A DNA stretch of 64,000 bases from Candidatus Nanosyncoccus sp. (GTDB lineage Bacteria > Patescibacteriota > Saccharimonadia > Saccharimonadales > Saccharimonadaceae). Under the pieces are notes generated by a model. The model had not been told where the DNA came from and searched no databases. It worked only from the letters and a program-made list of their open reading frames with translations. This document shows positions 2,492 to 62,002 of the stretch, one piece after another. A program made the translations under genes and the position numbers. The stretch lies in the NCBI GenBank assembly GCA_045603565.1, contig JAZUML010000003.1, forward strand, positions 13,818-77,817, given 5' to 3'. Every line of letters starts with the position of its first letter. Within the stretch, counting starts at the first letter, position 1.

Positions 2492-2923
2492 TTATTCATG
2501 ATGATATTTCCCGCCTCGGGCAATTTCTTGCGCACGATACGTCTGTTCGGTCACCAATAATCTAGCAATCATATGCGGAAAAACCAATCGCGAAAAGCTC
2601 CACACGAAATCAGCGCGTTTTCTTACTTCTTCAGAGAAACCATAAGCTCCTCCAATTAGAATCACCACTTCGCGTGAGTCCAAAAATACTTTTTCCAACC
2701 TCTTAGAATATTCATCTGATGATATATTTTCGCCTCTCTCGTCGCAACAGATTACATACTCTCGGTGTGAAAATGGCCAGTCTGCCAAAAACCGCATCAG
2801 CTTTTCTTCATCCATCAATTGCCACGTAATATCAAACGGTTTCCGTAGTCTTTTTTCATATTCCACACAGGCTTCTGTACACCATGCGGTACTTTTCTTT
2901 CCACCAGCTATTATCTTAATCAT
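2492..2923 (-). CDS. rlmH: 23S rRNA pseudouridine-1915 N3-methyltransferase RlmH
   Basis: SPOUT motifs CDERGENISS, ILIGGAYGFS, SFSRLVFPHMIARLLVTEQTYRAQEI..GGKYHH; start moved to MIKIIAGGK. Confidence 0.92.
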   Translation of the reverse strand: MIKIIAGGKKSTAWCTEACVEYEKRLRKPFDITWQLMDEEKLMRFLADWPFSHREYVICCDERGENISSDEYSKRLEKVFLDSREVVILIGGAYGFSEEVRKRADFVWSFSRLVFPHMIARLLVTEQTYRAQEIARGGKYHHE

Positions 2924-3018
2924 GCCAAAATTATACCACAAAAAAGGTAACCAAAATTCAGATAAAGAATAGGTAGCCATTCACAAAAAACCCAATCCGT
3001 GATAAAATCTATTCCAGT

Positions 3019-3093
3019 TGGGATGTCGCCAAGTGGTAAGGCAACGGGTTTTGGTCCCGTCATTCGCAGGTTCGAATCCTGCCATCCCAGCCA
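3019..3093 (+). tRNA. tRNA-Gln(TTG)
   Basis: Cloverleaf TGGGATG/CATCCCA, anticodon arm ACGGG-TT TTG GT-CCCGT, T-loop TTCGAAT, encoded CCA. Confidence 0.96.
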
Positions 3094-3154
3094 GAAAAGA
3101 AAATGAGAGAGTTTACTCTCTTATTTTGTTTTTTGCGGATGGCAAAGGATAGCC

Positions 3155-3173
3155 AATCCTGCCATCCCAGCCA
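3155..3173 (+). repeat. 19-bp direct duplication of the tRNA-Gln 3' end
   Basis: AATCCTGCCATCCCAGCCA identical to 3075-3093. Confidence 0.9.
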
Positions 3174-3206
3174 TTTTTGATTCCCCTTGTGTTTTTCCTA
3201 AAAGTG

Positions 3207-3215
3207 TGCTATAAT
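3207..3215 (+). promoter_or_regulatory. Extended -10 promoter (TGnTATAAT) of ftsK, leaderless geometry
   Basis: TGCTATAAT ends 7 nt before the ATG at 3223; no SD. Confidence 0.65.
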
Positions 3216-3222
3216 AAAAGGC

Positions 3223-11042: not shown

Positions 11043-11679
11043 AGGGTATTACAAAATTGAAGGTGCAGCTCGCGCCTTCAATTTTGATTTCAAAAACAAA
11101 ATCGTATTAGACATCGGTTCATCTACTGGAGGTTTCACTCAATACGCCTTAGATCATGGCGCTAAAAAAGTCATCGCCATAGAAAAGGGAACCAAACAAA
11201 TGGCACCCTCACTCCGCCAAGACCCCCGTGTCGAACTTCACGAAAAAACCGACATCTTTGACGTAAAAACAACAGAACTGTCTTCTTCGGGACGCTCCTC
11301 GCGTCCATCTTCATGGGGCTCGTCGCTGAGTCCTCGTAGCGACTGCGGATTCCCCTCAGAAGACAATTCTGTTGTTTTTGATGTTATTGTAGCTGATGTT
11401 TCATTTACTAGTCTTACAAAAGTTTTAGCTCATACCAAGGCAAATTTAGCGAGCGAAGCCACTAAATTTCTCGTAATGTTAAAACCCCAGTTCGAGGCCA
11501 GGCCAGATCAACTCAACAAAGGCGTTATCAAAAACGAGTCAATTCGTCGCGACATTATCAAACAATTCGAACAATGGCTCAAAGATCACGATTTTGTCAT
11601 TATCAAAAAACGCGACAATCTCTTGAAAGGGAAGACCGGAAATCAGGAAAGATTTTATTATTTAACACTTGCAAAATAA
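11026..11679 (+). CDS. TlyA-family SAM methyltransferase lacking the S4 domain, with a ~35-aa palindromic insertion
   Basis: VLDIGSSTGGFT, DVSFTSL, MLKPQFEA, GKTGNQERF; start codon uncertain (GTG 11017 or 11026). Confidence 0.85.
   Translation: MSVKNRGYYKIEGAARAFNFDFKNKIVLDIGSSTGGFTQYALDHGAKKVIAIEKGTKQMAPSLRQDPRVELHEKTDIFDVKTTELSSSGRSSRPSSWGSSLSPRSDCGFPSEDNSVVFDVIVADVSFTSLTKVLAHTKANLASEATKFLVMLKPQFEARPDQLNKGVIKNESIRRDIIKQFEQWLKDHDFVIIKKRDNLLKGKTGNQERFYYLTLAK
11265..11379. repeat. Family A palindromic element, in frame within the tlyA-like gene
   Basis: 22-bp arms 11265-11286 and 11358-11379 (21/22 complementary); core CCATCTTCATGGGGCTCGTCGCTGAGTCC resembles the reverse complement of 23050-23101. 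Confidence 0.88.
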
Positions 11680-22062: not shown

Positions 22063-23001
22063 TTATTTTGTTTCCGAATGAAACTTCTCATGTATCTCTT
22101 TTAGATGCGCATCTGTCACGTGAGTATATATTTGTGTCGTAGAAATATCTGCATGCCCTAGCATCGATTGCACTGCACGAAGATCCGCACCATTCATCAA
22201 AAGATCAGTCGCAAAAGAATGTCGGAGTGTATGCGGAGAAACATGCTTGGTGATACCAGCCAATCTCGCATATTTTTCAACTATTCTTTCCACCGAACGC
22301 GCAGTAATTCGGCGATAATTTCCGGAAGTATCTACCGCCTGAGTGTTACGCGAATTATTCAAAAACAAAGCCGGCAGGGAATCACTTCGTGCGTCCAAAT
22401 AATCGCGTACGCGATCTGCTGCCGATTGGCTAATAAAAATCGGTCGATCCTTACTTCCTTTCCCCCTCACCATAAACTCACGTCGCTCTAGATTAATCGA
22501 ATCACGATTAAGTCCCACTAATTCTGAAACCCGCAACCCACCAGAGTACAATAGTTCGATAATCGCCCGATCTCTTAGTCCTGACTCGGTCGATAAATCT
22601 ATCTGTTCCAACATATCTTCCACTTCATCAAAATGCAAAAAAGATACCTGTTTTCGTATCACGTGCGGCAAATCCACGAGGGAAGGATCCAATGATTTAA
22701 TATCTCGTCTAGCTAAGTATTTCAAAAAACCGCGCAATGCAATCAGATGATAAGCTTGAGTAATGGTTTTTAAATCATCTTCGCCCTTCTCAGAACCATA
22801 ACGATTTAGCTTAATTCTATACTTTCTTAACAATTCTTTTGTAATATCAGACGGCTTCATCTCGTCTTTATTCAAAATTTCTAACGAAATCTCCACAAAT
22901 CTTTCCAAGTACAACCTGTAGTTTTCAATCGTCTTTTTACTTCTCCCCGCCTCTATCTCCAAATGCTCCAGAAAATCATTAATCAGATCATAAATATCCA
23001 T
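22063..23001 (-). CDS. XerC/XerD-family tyrosine recombinase
   Basis: RDRAIIELLYSGGLRVSEL, GKGSKDR, HTLRHSFATDLL, LGHADISTTQIY. Confidence 0.95.
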   Translation of the reverse strand: MDIYDLINDFLEHLEIEAGRSKKTIENYRLYLERFVEISLEILNKDEMKPSDITKELLRKYRIKLNRYGSEKGEDDLKTITQAYHLIALRGFLKYLARRDIKSLDPSLVDLPHVIRKQVSFLHFDEVEDMLEQIDLSTESGLRDRAIIELLYSGGLRVSELVGLNRDSINLERREFMVRGKGSKDRPIFISQSAADRVRDYLDARSDSLPALFLNNSRNTQAVDTSGNYRRITARSVERIVEKYARLAGITKHVSPHTLRHSFATDLLMNGADLRAVQSMLGHADISTTQIYTHVTDAHLKEIHEKFHSETK

Positions 23002-23017
23002 ATCTATATTATATCAG

Positions 23018-23140
23018 AAGAAAATTAGAATGTTACCTTCTCGGGGGCTTCCGCGACCAACGGGGAGCGGACTGAGCGACTGAGCCCCATAACGATGGGT
23101 GCGAAGTAGCATACCCCGAAAGGTATATTCTAATTTTCTT
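23018..23140. repeat. Family A palindromic element, intergenic between the divergent xer and ndk genes
   Basis: Arms 23018-23039 and 23120-23140; core homologous to the tsaD, tlyA and polA copies. Confidence 0.9.
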
Positions 23141-26125: not shown

Positions 26126-27163
26126 ATGAACCTATTGAAGAAGAAAGATACGAAGAAGACCGAACAAGAGAAGGTCGAAGAACGTCGCGAAGAAATTCTC
26201 GCTACCGGTCGCAAATTTAAATACCCCCTCCAATGGACCAAGCATCGCATCGTTATTAATACCATTCTAATTACATTTGTTGTTGTAGCTATGATGGTAA
26301 TTGGTGGTTGGCTAGCTTTATATCGTTTTGGCATGACTGATGAATTCCTTTTCCGCATCACCAAGATTTTCCCAGTTCCAGTCGCCAGCGTAAACTCCGA
26401 GAATGTTCCATTTTCGGACTATCTCATGCTCTACCGTAGCAGTATTACATCTATCGAGCGCCAATCTGGCACTCAGTTTGACGAAGAATCTATCGGTACT
26501 TTGCGTGCCGAATACAAGCGCGCCGCCTTGTCAGAAGCCGAAGAATACACTTATGCCGCGAATCTAGCCAAAGAATACGGTATCACGGTATCGCAAGAAG
26601 AGGTTACAAATGAATTCAATCGTCATCTTGCTGTTGGCGGTATCGAGCGGAGCGAAGAAGGTTTCATCAAAATCATTGAAGACAATTTTGGTCTCAACAA
26701 GAGCGAATACGAGCGCATGCTCTACCTCTCTCTTTTAAAAGCCAAAGTCGAAGAAAACATTGACAATACCGCCACCAAGACCGCTCAAGAAGTAGAATCT
26801 CTTTTAGCCGAAAACGACAACAATTATCAAGCCGTAGCCGAAGCCCTCGGCGAAAAGATCCAATACCAAGAAACTGGCGGTTTAGTCGATAATAAAAACA
26901 TTGATGGTGGTCGTGCCTCTGAAGCCATGAAACTAGAACCAGGCGAAAGTAGCGGCAAATTTATCTCCATGAATGGGGACGGGTATTATTTCGTTAAGCT
27001 TATCAAGAAAACCGACAACGAAGTTAATTTCGTTTCCATCAAGGTCCCATTTACTGAATTTGGTAAAAGATTTGAATCTCTAAAAGACGAAAACAAAATC
27101 GCTGAATATATCGAAATCAAAGACCCAAATCAAACTGAAGAAACGATTGAGCAACCAGAATAG
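26126..27163 (+). CDS. SurA N-terminal-domain / PrsA-like foldase
   Basis: TM anchor, PVASVNSENV, AKEYGITVSQEEV helical SurA-N pattern. Confidence 0.65.
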   Translation: MNLLKKKDTKKTEQEKVEERREEILATGRKFKYPLQWTKHRIVINTILITFVVVAMMVIGGWLALYRFGMTDEFLFRITKIFPVPVASVNSENVPFSDYLMLYRSSITSIERQSGTQFDEESIGTLRAEYKRAALSEAEEYTYAANLAKEYGITVSQEEVTNEFNRHLAVGGIERSEEGFIKIIEDNFGLNKSEYERMLYLSLLKAKVEENIDNTATKTAQEVESLLAENDNNYQAVAEALGEKIQYQETGGLVDNKNIDGGRASEAMKLEPGESSGKFISMNGDGYYFVKLIKKTDNEVNFVSIKVPFTEFGKRFESLKDENKIAEYIEIKDPNQTEETIEQPE

Positions 27164-27273: not shown

Positions 27274-27291
27274 TGGTGCGAGTACAGGGAG
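27274..27291 (-). repeat. 18-bp duplication of the tRNA-Gly 3' end (1 mismatch)
   Basis: TGGTGCGAGTACAGGGAG versus TGGTGCGGGTACAGGGAG at 27358-27375. Confidence 0.85.
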
Positions 27292-27357
27292 ATTGCCCTC
27301 CCTGGGCCCCACTCCCACAAACAAAAAATAAGAGCGAGCTCTCATTTTTTTATTTGC

Positions 27358-40050: not shown

Positions 40051-40129
40051 ACTTATCAGATTTCTTTACAAGTTGAAGCCCTGGCGTTATTATTAGTATG
40101 TGTGTTGTGCACATACTGAAAGGGAAAAT

Positions 40130-41104
40130 ATGGATAAAAGTATAGAGATCTACAAAATTCATGAAGGCGAAATTGTTTTTCGCGTCGATGCAGACAAAGA
40201 GACCATTTGGACTACACAGGAACAACTTTCAAATCTTTTTGGTGTAGATCGTACCGTGATTGGTCGTCATTTGCGCAATATTTTTCGCGACGGAGAATTA
40301 GACGAAAATTCAGTATGTGCAAAAATTGCACATACTGCCACAGACGGCAAAACTTATCAGGTCAAAATGTACAATCTCGACGCCATTATCTCTGTTGGTT
40401 ATCGTGTCAACTCCAAAAAGGCCACCGATTTTCGTATTTGGGCTACCAAAGTTCTCCACCATTATGTTATTGACGGCGTTTCGGTTAACGAGCGTCGTTT
40501 AAAAGAACTCGATGCCAAAAAACTCCACGAAATCGAAGGCGCCCTCGGTATTGTCAAGCGCCTTGTTGCCTCTTCCGATCTTTCCGCTGATGAAGCTGGC
40601 GGCGTGCTAGAAGTTATCACTAAGTACGGCCCGAGTTTTAAGGCCCTTAAAGAATACGACGAAGGCCACATCTCTTTTGCAAAAGGGAAGAAGGCCACCA
40701 AAATCATTTCCAAAGACGACGGAATTAACATTATTAAAGAACTCAAAAAATCCGTCAAAGGCGACGACTTATTTGGCAAGCCGCGTGGCGAAGCCTTTGA
40801 ATCGTCACTCAGTGCCATCACTCAGACTTTCGATGGTAAGGATGTTTACCCCTCCATTTCCGAAAAAGCTGCCAACCTCCTCTATCTTATCATCAAAGAT
40901 CACCCCTTTTATGATGGCAACAAACGCATTGGCGCTCTGCTTTTTGTAGTCTTTCTCACTATCAACGACTATCACCTCACCAAAAATGGCGAAACCAAAA
41001 TTTCCGACCGCGCTCTCACCGCCCTCGCCCTCTTAATTGCCGAATCAAATCCCAAAGAAAAAGGGCTACTAATAGCCCTCATCTGTAAACTTTTGGAAAA
41101 TTAA
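40130..41104 (+). CDS. RhuM-family DNA-binding domain fused to a Fic/Doc domain
   Basis: YNLDAIISVGYRVNSKKATDFRIWAT (RhuM); HPFYDGNKRIG (Fic motif); start set at MDKSIE. Confidence 0.88.
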   Translation: MDKSIEIYKIHEGEIVFRVDADKETIWTTQEQLSNLFGVDRTVIGRHLRNIFRDGELDENSVCAKIAHTATDGKTYQVKMYNLDAIISVGYRVNSKKATDFRIWATKVLHHYVIDGVSVNERRLKELDAKKLHEIEGALGIVKRLVASSDLSADEAGGVLEVITKYGPSFKALKEYDEGHISFAKGKKATKIISKDDGINIIKELKKSVKGDDLFGKPRGEAFESSLSAITQTFDGKDVYPSISEKAANLLYLIIKDHPFYDGNKRIGALLFVVFLTINDYHLTKNGETKISDRALTALALLIAESNPKEKGLLIALICKLLEN

Positions 41105-45554: not shown

Positions 45555-45596
45555 TTGAAAATAAAATAGACCCAAAGGGTCTAATTTTATTTTCAA
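45555..45596 (+). terminator. Long hairpin after tRNA-Asp (probable terminator)
   Basis: TTGAAAATAAAATAGACCC-AAA-GGGTCTAATTTTATTTTCAA. Confidence 0.7.
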
Positions 45597-45658
45597 CAGA
45601 CGAAACCAACGAGTCGTACTTGTTTTTTTCTAATACTCGTGGTATAATACCTCCCAAT

Positions 45659-46600: not shown

Positions 46601-47372
46601 AGATACCGCCGACACCAAGACTTTGCAATCCAAGATCACTGCCATGCGCGAAGGCGGCAAAATCATGGGCAATCTTTTAAAAGACCTCGAAAACTATGTC
46701 AAGCCCGGCATGACAGGGAAGGAAATTGACGCTTGGGTCCGCCAGGAAATCGTTAAACGTGGCGCCACCGTAGCGTACGATGATTTAAAAGAGAAATTTC
46801 CAGGAGCAATCTGTATTTCCATTAATGACGAATTGGTTCACGGCGCCCCTAAGGATGAACCCCTAGAAGAGGGCGACAAAGCTTCTTTTGACCTCGTCAT
46901 CGGTTATAAAGGCTACTATACTGACTCCGCTTTTACAATGATAGTTGGCGAAAAAGGCTCACCAGCCGTTAAAAAAATGATTAATATTACCAAAGAATCT
47001 CTCTGGGCCGGCATTGAGCAAGTTAGGCCCGGCGCCCATATCGGCGATATTGGCCACGCCGTCGAAACAGTCCTAAGAAAAGGTCATCTCGGCGTAATAG
47101 AAAACTACATCGGCCACGGCATCGGCAAAGAAATGCACGAACCGCCCGAAGTCCCCAATTATGGCAAAAAAGGTCACGGCTACAAACTAGTTGAAGGCGA
47201 TACTATTTGCATCGAACCAATGTCTTGTCTTGGTAAACCCGCTAATTACGTAGACAAAGATGACAACTGGAGCGTCAAAATGAAAGACGGCTCCATCGGC
47301 TGTCACTGCGAACACACCATTCTCGTCACCAAAGACGGTTACGAAGTGCTAACACTAGCAGATGGCGAGTAA
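46590..47372 (+). CDS. map: Methionine aminopeptidase type I
   Basis: CISINDELVHG, D..YYTDSAFT, GHGIG..MHEPP, IEPM, HCEHTI. Confidence 0.96.
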   Translation: MVNKDTADTKTLQSKITAMREGGKIMGNLLKDLENYVKPGMTGKEIDAWVRQEIVKRGATVAYDDLKEKFPGAICISINDELVHGAPKDEPLEEGDKASFDLVIGYKGYYTDSAFTMIVGEKGSPAVKKMINITKESLWAGIEQVRPGAHIGDIGHAVETVLRKGHLGVIENYIGHGIGKEMHEPPEVPNYGKKGHGYKLVEGDTICIEPMSCLGKPANYVDKDDNWSVKMKDGSIGCHCEHTILVTKDGYEVLTLADGE

Positions 47373-47462
47373 GAATTCCTAAGATGTCCTGCGGGACATA
47401 AAGACTTGGCCCGAGTGACCCGGAACGTGCCCGAAGGGCACGCTTGGAATTCTTACTCGCCA
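47363..47462. repeat. Family C palindromic element overlapping the map stop codon
   Basis: Perfect 17-bp inverted repeat TGGCGAGTAAGAATTCC/GGAATTCTTACTCGCCA enclosing two small hairpins. Confidence 0.85.
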
Positions 47463-58533: not shown

Positions 58534-58576
58534 TGCATCTGAAGATGCATGAAAAAGTAGGACGTTGTTCTGCGAA

Positions 58577-58598
58577 TCAAGTCCCATCTCGGGCACCA
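58577..58598 (+). repeat. 22-bp direct duplication of the tRNA-Leu 3' end
   Basis: TCAAGTCCCATCTCGGGCACCA identical to 58512-58533. Confidence 0.92.
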
Positions 58599-58607
58599 CT
58601 GAATTTG

Positions 58608-59963
58608 ATGAGTTATATTGCGATTGATCTTAAGTCTTTTTATGCTTCCGTAGAATGCGTGGAGCGAGGGTTGGACCCTTTGACTGCGAAATTGGTAGTG
58701 GCGGATGAGTCGCGAACTGATAAAACAATTTGTTTGGCAGTTTCGCCGGCCTTGAAAGCTCTTGGTATTCCTGGGCGCGCAAGGTTATACGAGGTGAAGC
58801 AAAAAGCAAAGGATTTTATTATCGCTCCGCCGAGAATGGCTTATTATATTAGCTATAGTACACGTATATATAATATATATCTTCGTTATATTGCCGAAGA
58901 AGACATGCATGTTTATTCGATTGACGAAGTTTTTATTGATGCAACGCCGTATTTAAAAAACTATAAAATGACAGCTAGGGAATTAGCAATAAAAATAATA
59001 AAAGAGGTTTTGGCTGAGACTGGCGTGACGGCCACAGTGGGAATTGGAACGAATTTGTATCTTGCGAAGGTGGCGATGGATATTGTGGCAAAACACGAAG
59101 AGCCGGATGAGGACGGAGTGCGTATTGCTGAGCTAGACGAGATGAGCTACCGACAAAAACTGTGGGAGCACAAGCCGTTGACGGATTTTTGGCGTGTGGG
59201 TAAAGGCTATGCGAGGAGATTAAAAAGCGCAGGGCTAAATACGATGGGCGATATTGCGCTTTGTTCGGAGCATGATGAAGACTATTTATATAAAATGTTT
59301 GGTGTAAATGCGGAACTTTTGATTGACCACGCGTGGGGATGGGAGCCGTGTGAAATAGCTGACATCCGAAAATATCGACCAAAAAGTAATTCGTTTTCGT
59401 CTGGGCAAGTTTTGAAGGAGCCGTATAGTTTTGAAAAGGCACGTACGGTGGCAAGGGAAATGGCGGAAGAGGTGGGCTTGTCGCTACTTAGGAAGGGCTT
59501 AGTAACAGAGCAGGTGGTTTTGACGGTGGGCTATGATAAGGCTAGTTTAGTTAATTATAGTGGCGAAACAAAAGCGGACTTTTATGGTAGGACAGTGCCA
59601 AAGCCTGCCCATGGTACTCATAATTTGCGCGAATATAGCGCTTCGACTGAGGAAATATCGCGAGCAGTGGCGGATTTGTTTGAAAGAATAGTTGATCCGA
59701 AGCTATTGGTGCGTAGAATCAATATTGACGTAAATCACGTCATAAGAGAAGAAGATGCGGCAAAAATTCCGAGACAACTTGATTTGTTTGTAGATTTGAA
59801 TAAGCCAAAAAATCAGAAATTAAAAAAAGAGAAACGTGCGAACGAGGCAATTATTGCGATAAAAAGACGATACGGTAAGAATGCAATTTTGAAGGGAATA
59901 AATTTTGAAGAGGGAGCGACGGGGCGAGAGCGTAATACGCAAATCGGAGGACACCGAGGATGA
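58608..59963 (+). CDS. Y-family DNA polymerase (UmuC/DinB-like)
   Basis: IAIDLKSFYASVEC, YSIDEVFID, GIGTNLYLAK, FWRVGKG, IKRRYGKNAILKG; start moved out of the tRNA to ATG 58608. Confidence 0.93.
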   Translation: MSYIAIDLKSFYASVECVERGLDPLTAKLVVADESRTDKTICLAVSPALKALGIPGRARLYEVKQKAKDFIIAPPRMAYYISYSTRIYNIYLRYIAEEDMHVYSIDEVFIDATPYLKNYKMTARELAIKIIKEVLAETGVTATVGIGTNLYLAKVAMDIVAKHEEPDEDGVRIAELDEMSYRQKLWEHKPLTDFWRVGKGYARRLKSAGLNTMGDIALCSEHDEDYLYKMFGVNAELLIDHAWGWEPCEIADIRKYRPKSNSFSSGQVLKEPYSFEKARTVAREMAEEVGLSLLRKGLVTEQVVLTVGYDKASLVNYSGETKADFYGRTVPKPAHGTHNLREYSASTEEISRAVADLFERIVDPKLLVRRINIDVNHVIREEDAAKIPRQLDLFVDLNKPKNQKLKKEKRANEAIIAIKRRYGKNAILKGINFEEGATGRERNTQIGGHRG

Positions 59964-60924: not shown

Positions 60925-61094
60925 TTGCTTCTCCTTTGCTTTTGGTGAAGGATGGTTGCGGCGTATTCCGCAACTCAGTCTAACCACTTTTATGATTAGG
61001 CTGAGTTGCAGAATATTAGGGGTGACTGTTAAGGTGCTGTGTATTTATATTATATCACGCTTGTGATATTTTGTCAATAGTGTATAATAGAGGT

Positions 61095-61916
61095 GTGAAT
61101 ATAATGTATTGTGGCGATAAAGGTATTAACAGGGGGGTTTTGGTATCGATTTTGTCGATTTTGAAGCATAACAGGGGTGTTTTACATTTTTATATTTTGA
61201 CGATTAATTACGAGAATACAGAGGCGTTTACTGAGAAGTCTGCGAAATTTTTGGATGAATTAGTGAAAAAAACTAATCCGAAGAGTTTTGTGAAACTAAT
61301 TGACGCTTCGGAAGTGTTTACGGCGAATTTGCCGTCTAAAAATATGAAATCGTATTTTACGCCCTGTTCGATGCTCCGGCTTTATGCAGATAAGGTGCCG
61401 GAAATTGCGGCTTTAGATAGGGTGTTGTATTTAGATTACGATGTGATGTGTCGGGGAGATTTGACGGAGTTTTATAATACGAATATGGAAGGAGTTGAGG
61501 CGGCGGGAGTATTGGATATTTATGGAAAGAATTTTTATCATTACCATGGTTTGTTCAAGTTTGATTATATGAACTCGGGAGTGATGTTGTTTAATATGGA
61601 AGAATGTCTAGAGACGGGAATGTTTGAAAAGGCCGTGACTCTATGTGCTAAAAGGTGGATGATGCTAGCGGATCAGGCGGCGCTGAACAAGAGTATTAGT
61701 GAACGGAAATTGATGCCGAGAAAGTATAATGAACAAGGAGAGAGACCTAGGGAAGATACGGTTTTACATCATTTCAGTAATAATTTTAAGTTTTGGCCGT
61801 TTTTCCATGTGCAAAAAGTGAAGCCATTTGAGATTGAGAAAATACATACTGTTTTAAAAATTACGGAATACGACGATATTTTGAATGAATACCGTAGACT
61901 AAAAAGTAATTTATAG
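61095..61916 (+). CDS. Glycosyltransferase family 8
   Basis: SILSILKH, MLRLY, VLYLDYD (DxD), YMNSGVML, ADQAALN; start likely GTG 61095. Confidence 0.9.
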   Translation: MNIMYCGDKGINRGVLVSILSILKHNRGVLHFYILTINYENTEAFTEKSAKFLDELVKKTNPKSFVKLIDASEVFTANLPSKNMKSYFTPCSMLRLYADKVPEIAALDRVLYLDYDVMCRGDLTEFYNTNMEGVEAAGVLDIYGKNFYHYHGLFKFDYMNSGVMLFNMEECLETGMFEKAVTLCAKRWMMLADQAALNKSISERKLMPRKYNEQGERPREDTVLHHFSNNFKFWPFFHVQKVKPFEIEKIHTVLKITEYDDILNEYRRLKSNL

Positions 61917-61992
61917 CATGAAATATCCTTTTTCGGACACGCTCGAGGGCGCTCGCCCAGGCTTATGGTCCTCAAAAGGATAATTCATGCTA
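61914..61992. repeat. Short family A-like palindromic element between GT8 and the acyltransferase
   Basis: 19-bp arms TAGCATGAAATATCCTTTT/AAAAGGATAATTCATGCTA; inner ends GACACGCTCG...GGTCCTCAAAAG match the tsaD copy (GACACGCTCG...GGTCTCGAAAG). Confidence 0.7.
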
Positions 61993-62002
61993 TTATATAT
62001 TT

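Follow-up and report, generated by a model that had tools for sequence, protein, structure and literature searches.

Why is a tRNA gene followed by an inverted copy, and then by a second direct copy, of its own 3′ end? The question is raised by the tRNA-Gln gene of a 64,000-nucleotide stretch of DNA, hereafter the window, from Candidatus Nanosyncoccus (Saccharibacteria, ruminant gut). An earlier reading of the letters without database searches (the sequence-only reading) had reported a hairpin, an antisense copy and an exact 19-nt repeat behind this gene, and all three are present. Window positions 3094-3173 form one tRNA-end module, in which a terminator-like hairpin (t) precedes two copies of the final 19 nt of tRNA-Gln, the first inverted (S′) and the second direct (S). 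Sequence comparison places this module in type A, one of four architectures found in related genomes, and indicates that the window modules resemble core-less miniatures of the RtT class known from the E. coli tyrT trailer; type D is the full-size form with the RtT layout.

The tRNA-Gln(TTG) gene lies on the plus strand at 3019..3093 with its CCA encoded (ARAGORN; Rfam tRNA model, 64.9 bits). Its final 19 nt, AATCCTGCCATCCCAGCCA (segment S, 3075-3093, plus strand), extend from the last three T-loop bases to the CCA. Hairpin t follows at 3100-3127 on the same strand (AAAATGAGAGAG-TTTA-CTCTCTTATTTT; 12-bp stem, loop TTTA; terminator scan and folding). Its stem bears A- and T-tracts, and a T-run (GTTTTTT) extends the unit of hairpin and T-run to 3100..3134. 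A G+C-containing hairpin with a T-run directly after it is the form of an intrinsic terminator, which is the function predicted for 3100-3127 by the terminator scan. The same hairpin is the apex of a long S-t-S′ palindrome (3074-3153). S′ (TGCGGATGGCAAAGGAT, 3134..3150, plus strand) is an inverted copy of the T-stem 3′ strand and the acceptor 3′ strand of tRNA-Gln. It reads as the 5′ acceptor strand with one extra base, TG(C)GGATG, then as the T-stem 5′ strand with two extra bases, GCA(AA)GG, and then AT; GGATGGCAAAGGAT at 3137-3150 is the complement of ATCC-TGCCATCC except for a bulge of two bases (AA). The loop AGCCA (3151-3155, plus strand) leads into the second S (3155..3173, plus strand), which repeats the tRNA 3′ end exactly and in direct orientation over 19 nt, GCCA included, and is followed by TTTTT. 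The order read from the sequence is S - t - S′ - loop - S, in which S′ and the 3′ end of the tRNA are mirror images about the terminator loop: the right side of the hairpin, as its reverse complement, is ATCC(TT)TGCCATCC-GC-AAAAAAC..., and the left side is ATCCTGCCATCC-CAGCCA-GAAAAG.... The chance expectation for an exact 19-mer recurring within 100 nt is ~4e-10. No further 11-mer of tRNA-Gln recurs in the whole 64 kb; hence there is no distant copy in the window. Chance and assembly artefact were both ruled out, as the repeats are exact and the layout was seen in more than 100 independent assemblies.

Folding predicts that S′ and the second S form a 14-bp minihelix resembling an acceptor stem and T-arm, with exactly GCCA left unpaired. 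The z-scores against shuffled controls were -6.3 (3094-3180) and -3.8 (minihelix, 3134-3173). The minimum free energy (MFE) fold of 3019-3180 (-66.3 kcal/mol) is a long S-t-S′ hairpin in which the tRNA body closes on the downstream copy and the tRNA's own 3′ end pairs with S′. The native arrangement of the same segment (tRNA, terminator and minihelix) reached -62.9 kcal/mol. These two read-through RNA folds differ by ~3.4 kcal/mol, the energies being nearest-neighbour estimates that ignore tRNA tertiary structure and co-transcriptional folding. An Rfam scan of the window found no RNA family besides tRNAs, and a lenient scan (E<=10) gave just generic long-hairpin matches on 3074-3153 and no RtT match in the window.

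The layout was then compared with two sets of 80 loci from related genomes, one around ftsK and the other around a SurA-like gene (26126-27163 in the window); these are contigs of metagenome-assembled genomes (MAGs) with flanks of 2.5-3 kb, in which larger elements would be missed. Modules were present behind tRNA-Gln, tRNA-Arg and tRNA-Gly in 20-50% of cases across the ~160 loci, singly or in tandem up to five. About half of the ~50 tRNA-Gln loci had copies of the tRNA end within the next few hundred bases, as single units or in runs of up to four. Copies were found at 33 of 75 tRNA-Arg(CCT) loci (tandem up to five units) and at 12 of 59 tRNA-Gly(CCC) loci, where the T-stem co-varied. Every tRNA of the data set encodes its CCA, and in the modules examined the copies start at T-loop position 3, or within the last 1-3 T-loop bases, and run to the CCA. 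One unit of a five-copy tRNA-Gln array (L008, 2190-2660, minus strand) bears a promoter, a ribosome-binding site and an open reading frame (ORF) of 101 aa; this ORF is an orphan, with no homologue beyond its own cluster and no Pfam domain. The recurrence that the sequence-only reading had proposed, and its view that this is no ordinary island scar, thus held in the relatives: the ~160 loci carry no integrase, prophage or island between the copies.

The four architectures (A-D) were each found behind several tRNAs (Gln, Arg, Gly, Leu, Asn and others). Type A (78-81 nt), found behind Gln and Gly, joins a terminator of the GAGAGCTTGCTCTC family to a minihelix. Type B (61-81 nt) runs from the T-loop region in reverse complement through an apical stem of 3 bp and a loop of 3-5 nt to the sense strand, whose T-loop position 2 is G (GGTGCGA...). 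Type C (60-78 nt) has the same design with the linker TTCTTCGAAT, and type D (147-190 nt) has it with a ~95-nt structured insert following GGTTCGA. A genome scan with the 15-mer GGACCTTCGGTGCGA returned mainly chance matches in high-GC genomes, yet it also showed type B behind Asn, Arg(CCG) and Gly(GCC). Many relatives have the same terminator again after the copy, giving S-t-S′-l-S-t (L037, L041, L043, L104, L106, L112); in the window Gln module, the third copy is not followed by the downstream sequence of the first.

Both module arms were always specific to the resident tRNA in the related loci. The S′ element GGATGG of the window fits its own allele, CCATCC; in relatives the corresponding pair is GACCGG:CCGGTC, and those with the acceptor allele CGGTCCA have TG(C)GACCGG in S′. 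The T-stem pairs of the Gly modules track the tRNA allele as well (CAGGG/CCCTG, GAGGG/CCCTC, TGGGG/CCCCA). Type B hairpins had perfect tRNA-specific arms in 30 of 32 distinct sequences; their apical stem co-varies (ACC/GGT 25 times, ATC/GAT 5 times, ACT/AGT twice), and a purine stands opposite the fixed G, a mismatch at a constant position, in 31 of the 32. Type D modules of Gln, Arg and Gly align with one another, and their predicted fold is a cloverleaf-like four-way junction closed by S′:S, in which 26 of 45 predicted pairs show compensatory changes among seven sequences. If the copies were simple deletion scars, relatives might be expected to hold full islands between them and antisense segments that are not conserved; instead, these segments are conserved and change together with the allele of the tRNA.

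The sequence-only reading had noted that repeats behind E. coli tyrT contain the last 19 nt of the tRNA. This link was correct and goes deeper, since the RtT family (RF00391) has an antisense segment too, whose pairing with the sense copy (GgGaaGG:CCuuCcC) closes the curated structure. To our knowledge, the tyrT repeats, known since the late 1970s, have no accepted origin or function; RtT transcription and processing are known from the tyrT literature. The mode of action of rtT is described as unknown (10.1101/2024.07.17.603846). The tyrV/tyrT trailer of E. coli K-12 shares the module layout: each unit reads GGGGAAGGAT-GAG-AAGC...GGTTCGAC, then ~85 nt of hairpins, then AATCCTTCCCCCACCACCA, where GGGGAAGGAT is antisense to ATCCTTCCCC of tRNA-Tyr. 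The RtT model matches all four of these units. The Gln type D modules of sister genomes carry its consensus GGAUGAGAAcC..GGUuCGA (GGAUGAGAACC-GUA-GGUUCGA); in the loci examined the motif is confined to these modules, and the conserved internal core of RtT is absent from the window modules. Like RtT, the modules lie on the same strand directly downstream of a tRNA and are closed by an antisense:sense helix with a CCA tail (fold compared with the Rfam consensus). A tRNA 3′-end copy including CCA ends the Gln, Leu and Gly modules of the window (17 nt with one mismatch in Gly), but not the Asp trailer.

Related units were sought in other phyla with the pattern GATGAGAACC-N2-5-GGTTCGA in one genome per species. 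The scan covered at least 120 loci and listed 140 matches, against ~280 matches expected by chance; as the set was chosen by its motif, it is no argument for conservation of that motif. Among the matches listed, 105 of 140 were downstream of a same-strand tRNA, mostly 30-70 nt off. A copy of the last 14 nt of the tRNA follows within 260 nt in 69 of these 105, and in those 69 units the ten bases ahead of GAT are antisense to the resident tRNA. Hosts among the listed matches include Alpha-, Beta- and Gammaproteobacteria, Bacteroidota, Verrucomicrobiota, Gemmatimonadota, Patescibacteria and others, and their tRNAs represent ~13 amino-acid specificities, with 20 anticodons in the 55 units analysed in detail. 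Tandem arrays were common among the listed units, and the same terminator recurs after the copy in 30 of the 55. Among these cross-phylum units the RtT model scored on gammaproteobacterial ones alone, which follow Lys in Serratia and Gln in three MAGs. One Serratia sp. locus (L346, 5450-7330) holds at least nine RtT units that alternate with the genes of a tRNA-Lys cluster, all above the Rfam threshold, which shows that RF00391 also accompanies tRNAs other than tRNA-Tyr. The searchable literature yielded no account of RtT-like units beyond enterobacteria. The resemblance of GAUGAG..CGAA to a hammerhead ribozyme was considered and rejected: C3 and U4 misfit, A14 fits a minority (mainly Bacteroidota), and no Rfam ribozyme model matched.

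Modules are conserved above neutral expectation yet quickly gained and lost, as judged from sequence comparisons. For most genomes with saturated fourfold-degenerate sites in ftsK (25-53% identity), identity in the non-tRNA part of type A was 73-93%; comparisons with the two most divergent members, the window and L042, gave 52-67%. Similarity between type A modules is incongruent with ftsK identity, and together these observations point to purifying selection, horizontal spread or both. Turnover is evident in the closest genome (L001/L082; neighbouring protein 100% identical), which has a 1.45-kb gene where the window has its Gln module: a 1454-nt stretch (L001, 1459-2912) encoding an acidic low-complexity protein of 484 aa takes the place of the 77-nt module (3094-3179), with no tRNA-end repeat on its far side. 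In four metagenomes, contigs from related strains show the arrangement of L001, and module polymorphism is hence not readable there. At the Gly module, L082 (flanks ~99% identical) differs from the window just in the ~30-nt core of the terminator hairpin (GAGAGCTCGCTCT at window 27323-27351, AACCATTTATGGTT in L082), the A- and T-tracts on either side being identical. Borders between presence and absence of a module fall exactly at the CCA (L004 vs L010, L012 vs L019). In L039 and L146, S′ fits the resident tRNA allele and the displaced copy has another allele. The 5′ and 3′ acceptor strands of the L039 tRNA match each other and are both unlike the displaced copy, a pattern more in keeping with joint homologous replacement of the tRNA and the left part of the module than with a crossover in the T-loop.

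The orientation of the tRNA gene also varies at this locus. In the window (2492-3222 compared with L004-L080) and in a minority of relatives, ~12 of ~50 loci (including L001-L003, L012, L042, L048, L051, L060 and L069-L075), tRNA-Gln faces ftsK, and in most relatives it faces rlmH. The two orientations between the same two genes indicate that the tRNA cassette was inverted in place in part of the group.

How might such modules arise and persist? We give about an even chance to the following reading: they are miniature RtT-like elements that originated by fold-back (direct-inverted-direct) duplication, spread by recombination and are retained for their hairpin. Fold-back copying of the DNA would occur twice in succession, at the terminator hairpin and at the T-arm region, and the outcome would be a miniature tandem inversion duplication. 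We infer this origin from the three copies in direct-inverted-direct order with junctions at short palindromes (sequence and MFE folding), here the terminator hairpin and the T-arm region. S-t-S′-l-S-t units would then be the unmodified product, and the S-t-S′ trailer of tRNA-Asp, described below, the first, two-copy stage. Recombination between the direct tRNA-end repeats could amplify, delete and shuffle units. Movement between strains could take place by DNA uptake (genes at ~12-20 kb in the window look, by eye, like a type IV pilus/competence set) and homologous recombination with the tRNA and the S copy as homology arms; since the flanking tRNA and the copy of its last 19-22 nt provide such arms, no recombinase would be needed for this spread. 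The least certain step is that the S′:S helix is under selection, most probably at the RNA level, which is favoured by the RtT precedent, by the covariation in the multi-hairpin type D modules and by a minihelix with an exact NCCA overhang. In read-through transcripts a spare 3′ end would be locked in a minihelix ending in NCCA, which the tRNA 3′-end machinery might trim, as it does rtT RNA in E. coli, and which might vie with the original 3′ end for the tRNA body.

Several observations weigh against this reading. Type D cores and the type C linker are, by sequence, homologous across different tRNAs, so that simple fold-back is insufficient and some transfer between tRNA loci is required. G-U wobble pairs showed no strand bias (119 vs 126 pairs) and nothing marks the structure as RNA rather than as a DNA palindrome. 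Mismatches in the modules are largely purine-purine, and the cross-phylum units contain 35 G.T vs 45 A.C mismatches. Each module begins with a strong intrinsic terminator, so S′-S would be transcribed by read-through alone, and metatranscriptome contigs covered just the conserved tRNA, from other organisms. Moreover, the RtT model gave no match in the window either at the gathering threshold (45 bits) or at E<=10, and none on type D loci; the case for homology with RtT consequently draws on the layout and a short shared motif, and membership of RF00391 is not claimed.

Elements that integrate into tRNA genes leave tRNA 3′-end copies downstream, accumulate in tandem and make variability highest nearest the tRNA (10.1101/2020.12.28.424599; PMC9897764). 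The modules could accordingly be attachment (att)-site scars or mini-cassettes of elements integrating in the T-loop region with a recombinase acting in trans, comparable to cis-mobilisable elements (CIMEs), to integrative mobile elements exploiting Xer (IMEX) or to integron cassettes; the element would supply a new tRNA 3′ end and terminator, the old end would be pushed downstream, and S′ would be a core-type arm. The direct repeats, tRNA 3′ segments that start in the tRNA loop, look like such scars, and the identity blocks run from T-loop to CCA as in classical tRNA att sites. The exact CCA boundaries, the arrays that mix module types (one with its promoter and 101-aa ORF), the displaced alleles of L146 and L039 and the incongruence with host phylogeny would fit too, and the window encodes a Xer-type recombinase (22063-23001), its sole tyrosine recombinase according to Pfam searches of ten ORFs. 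However, neither an integrase nor a remnant of one adjoins any of the 161 related loci, where tblastn with the window Xer protein found orthologues alone. At the ~160 loci the repeats enclose no element above 0.5 kb, and in relatives the ORFs that follow tRNA-Gln are housekeeping genes or unrelated ones. Neither a full-size element nor a free one with the junction as attP was found: a viral scan for the tRNA-Gln end ATCCTGCCGGTCCAGCCA gave one chance match in a coding region and no phage or viral contig with the site as attP (plasmid collections were not searched). In addition, units of 60-80 bp are too short for circularising, the one cargo ORF is an orphan, and a core-type site has no need to mirror the acceptor strand and CCA across a terminator. 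In L039 both acceptor strands differ from the displaced copy, which a T-loop crossover cannot yield and homologous replacement can. We therefore regard an att origin as unlikely.

A functionless mutational by-product is a further alternative, to which we attach a low probability. Snap-back at two hairpins and unequal crossing-over would produce neutral junk that persists because its deletion brings no advantage, in keeping with the direct-inverted-direct order and its junctions at natural hairpins, with tandem arrays of identical units (L010, L041, L100), with fast turnover between strains, with the lack of a wobble bias and with other long palindromes in the window that have locus-specific arms. 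Neutral direct repeats 60-80 nt apart should nevertheless vanish quickly, while the module sequences are conserved far above saturated synonymous sites. The perfect arms of 30 of the 32 type B hairpins with their co-varying apical stems and fixed mismatch, the 26 compensatory pairs of type D and the recurrence of the layout across phyla also argue for more than junk. The sequence-only reading had itself suggested a switch in pre-tRNA processing, with S′ toggling between the tRNA 3′ end and the decoy copy, or a decoy attB that diverts phage integration; as explanations of the modules we consider both improbable. The pairing switch is plausible only in silico, given two folds within ~3.4 kcal/mol, one with the tRNA body closed on the downstream copy, but the energies have the limits stated above and the terminator lies upstream of S′. 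The decoy finds no support, as no integrating element for these sites, and thus nothing for it to counter, was present in any collection searched. A broader view extends the RtT-like reading: RtT may be the first-named member of a pan-bacterial superfamily of tRNA-templated elements that retailor themselves to any tRNA they follow, by fold-back copying of its 3′ end in both orientations, spread between loci and genomes and act as RNAs (a minihelix or cloverleaf with a true tRNA 3′ end) in tRNA 3′-end surveillance or stress signalling, the Saccharibacteria modules being a minimal working version. We offer this view tentatively, as one that may well prove wrong.

The window contains six tRNA genes, all with encoded CCA (ARAGORN). 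The sequence-only reading had counted four of them with this trailer, Asp in part, and the count is right on those terms; the full layout was seen behind Gln, Gly and Leu, with a weak antisense part in Leu, and Asp has the inverted copy alone. The tRNA-Gly(CCC) module (27274..27351, minus strand; sequence and folding) comprises a terminator (27323-27351), an acceptor-like segment GGGAGTGGGG (27307-27316), a T-stem-like CAGGGAG (27298-27304), a loop (27292-27297) and the copy CTCCCTGTACTCGCACCA (27274-27291, within which lies a 17-nt match to the tRNA end with one mismatch), all on the minus strand. CAGGGAG-GGCAAT-CTCCCTG leads into this copy, and the predicted minihelix pairs GUGGG with CCCGC and CAGGGAG with CUCCCUG and ends in the tail ACCA, the same build as in the Gln module. 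The tRNA-Leu(TAA) module (58534..58598, plus strand) has a hairpin (58534-58549), a degenerate S′ TAGGAC(G)TTG (58558-58567; 7-8 of 10 positions pair, with one bulge), a linker TTCTGCGAA (58568-58576) that resembles the type C linker, and an exact 22-nt copy of the tRNA end (58577-58598), each on the plus strand. The tRNA-Asp trailer (45555..45616, plus strand) is S-t-S′ with no second sense copy of the tRNA end: a long palindromic terminator (45555-45596, plus strand) is followed by S′ (45599-45616, plus strand), the reverse complement of tRNA positions ~56-73 with two substitutions and a 2-nt deletion. No module lies behind either tRNA-Arg or tRNA-Cys of the window. A gene for a Y-family (ImpB/MucB/SamB) DNA polymerase (58611-59963; Pfam) starts 13 nt past the tRNA-Leu end copy and is followed by ORFs of 67 aa and 269 aa, neither with a Pfam match. 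Elsewhere, the ORF at 40100-41104 has RhuM-family and Fic/DOC domains (Pfam) and is possibly a toxin-type or phage-related gene.

The window also holds palindromic elements of ~100-125 nt at 11265-11379, 23018-23140, 47363-47462 and 61904-62002 (also 60964-61015), with a GC-rich core and inverted arms of 23-35 nt that differ in each copy. The element at 11265 sits within an open reading frame, and the stop codon of the ORF upstream of the 47363 element falls within its left arm. The cores of the 11265 and 23018 elements share a 30-nt stretch that is 87% identical, in opposite orientation. For the element at 23018-23140 an empty-site comparison was attempted, and the intergenic region of the one usable relative was too different to align. 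The sequence-only reading had proposed that the tRNA trailers derive from the same inverted-duplication process as the arms of such elements; for the trailers the proposal fits the anatomy, in which the antisense copy is a mirror image across the terminator loop. The palindromic elements may be products of that process, or a family resembling miniature inverted-repeat transposable elements (MITEs). BLAST found no detectable homology between them and the type D cores.

These results show that a minimal, core-less form of the inverted plus direct tRNA-end layout exists in a tiny genome of the candidate phyla radiation (CPR). The layout stands behind many tRNAs, its arms track the resident allele and related units occur in many phyla, all of which bears on the tyrT puzzle; the modules are small, comparable versions of that old puzzle and are amenable to deletion and 3′-end mapping. 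Their anatomy suggests a concrete generating mechanism, fold-back duplication at the terminator and the T-arm. For genome annotation, orphan tRNA 3′ ends of this kind are no evidence of past prophage integration.

Compared with known systems, the modules share with att scars, CIMEs and tycheposon islands the tRNA 3′-end copies downstream and their tandem build-up by the tRNA. By contrast, the module repeats are 43-170 nt apart, there is no integrase and no cargo save one orphan ORF, and an inverted copy, the mirror image of the tRNA end, stands before each direct copy. Tandem inversion duplications are reportedly known from work of the Roth laboratory in Salmonella as direct-inverted-direct triplications formed via snap-back at short palindromes. 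The S-t-S′-l-S(-t) order, the junctions at natural hairpins and later asymmetric deletions that trim the palindromic junctions are common to both, but the modules measure tens of bases instead of kilobases, recur at one type of locus and show conservation across great evolutionary distances, unexpected for unstable intermediates of duplication. Plant mitochondrial t-elements and mascRNA are tRNA-like minihelices that are recognised by RNase P and RNase Z and define the ends of neighbouring RNAs. They resemble the modules as hairpins of the acceptor-stem and T-arm type that end in NCCA beside other transcripts; in the window, however, the ftsK promoter comes after the module, and there is no sign of a role in setting mRNA ends. 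RtT and the 178-bp tyrT repeats (rttR, tpr) differ in having a core, with ~85-95 nt where the core-less window modules have loops of 5-6 nt, and in their length (130-178 nt, compared with 60-80); the window modules, moreover, start with an intrinsic terminator, lack a tpr-like ORF and stand behind several different tRNAs of one small CPR genome. What the two have in common is a position on the same strand behind a tRNA, an end made of its last 19 nt with CCA, a 5′ segment antisense to the T-stem 3′ and acceptor strand that closes the structure and leaves an ...NCCA tail, and the occurrence of tandem copies.

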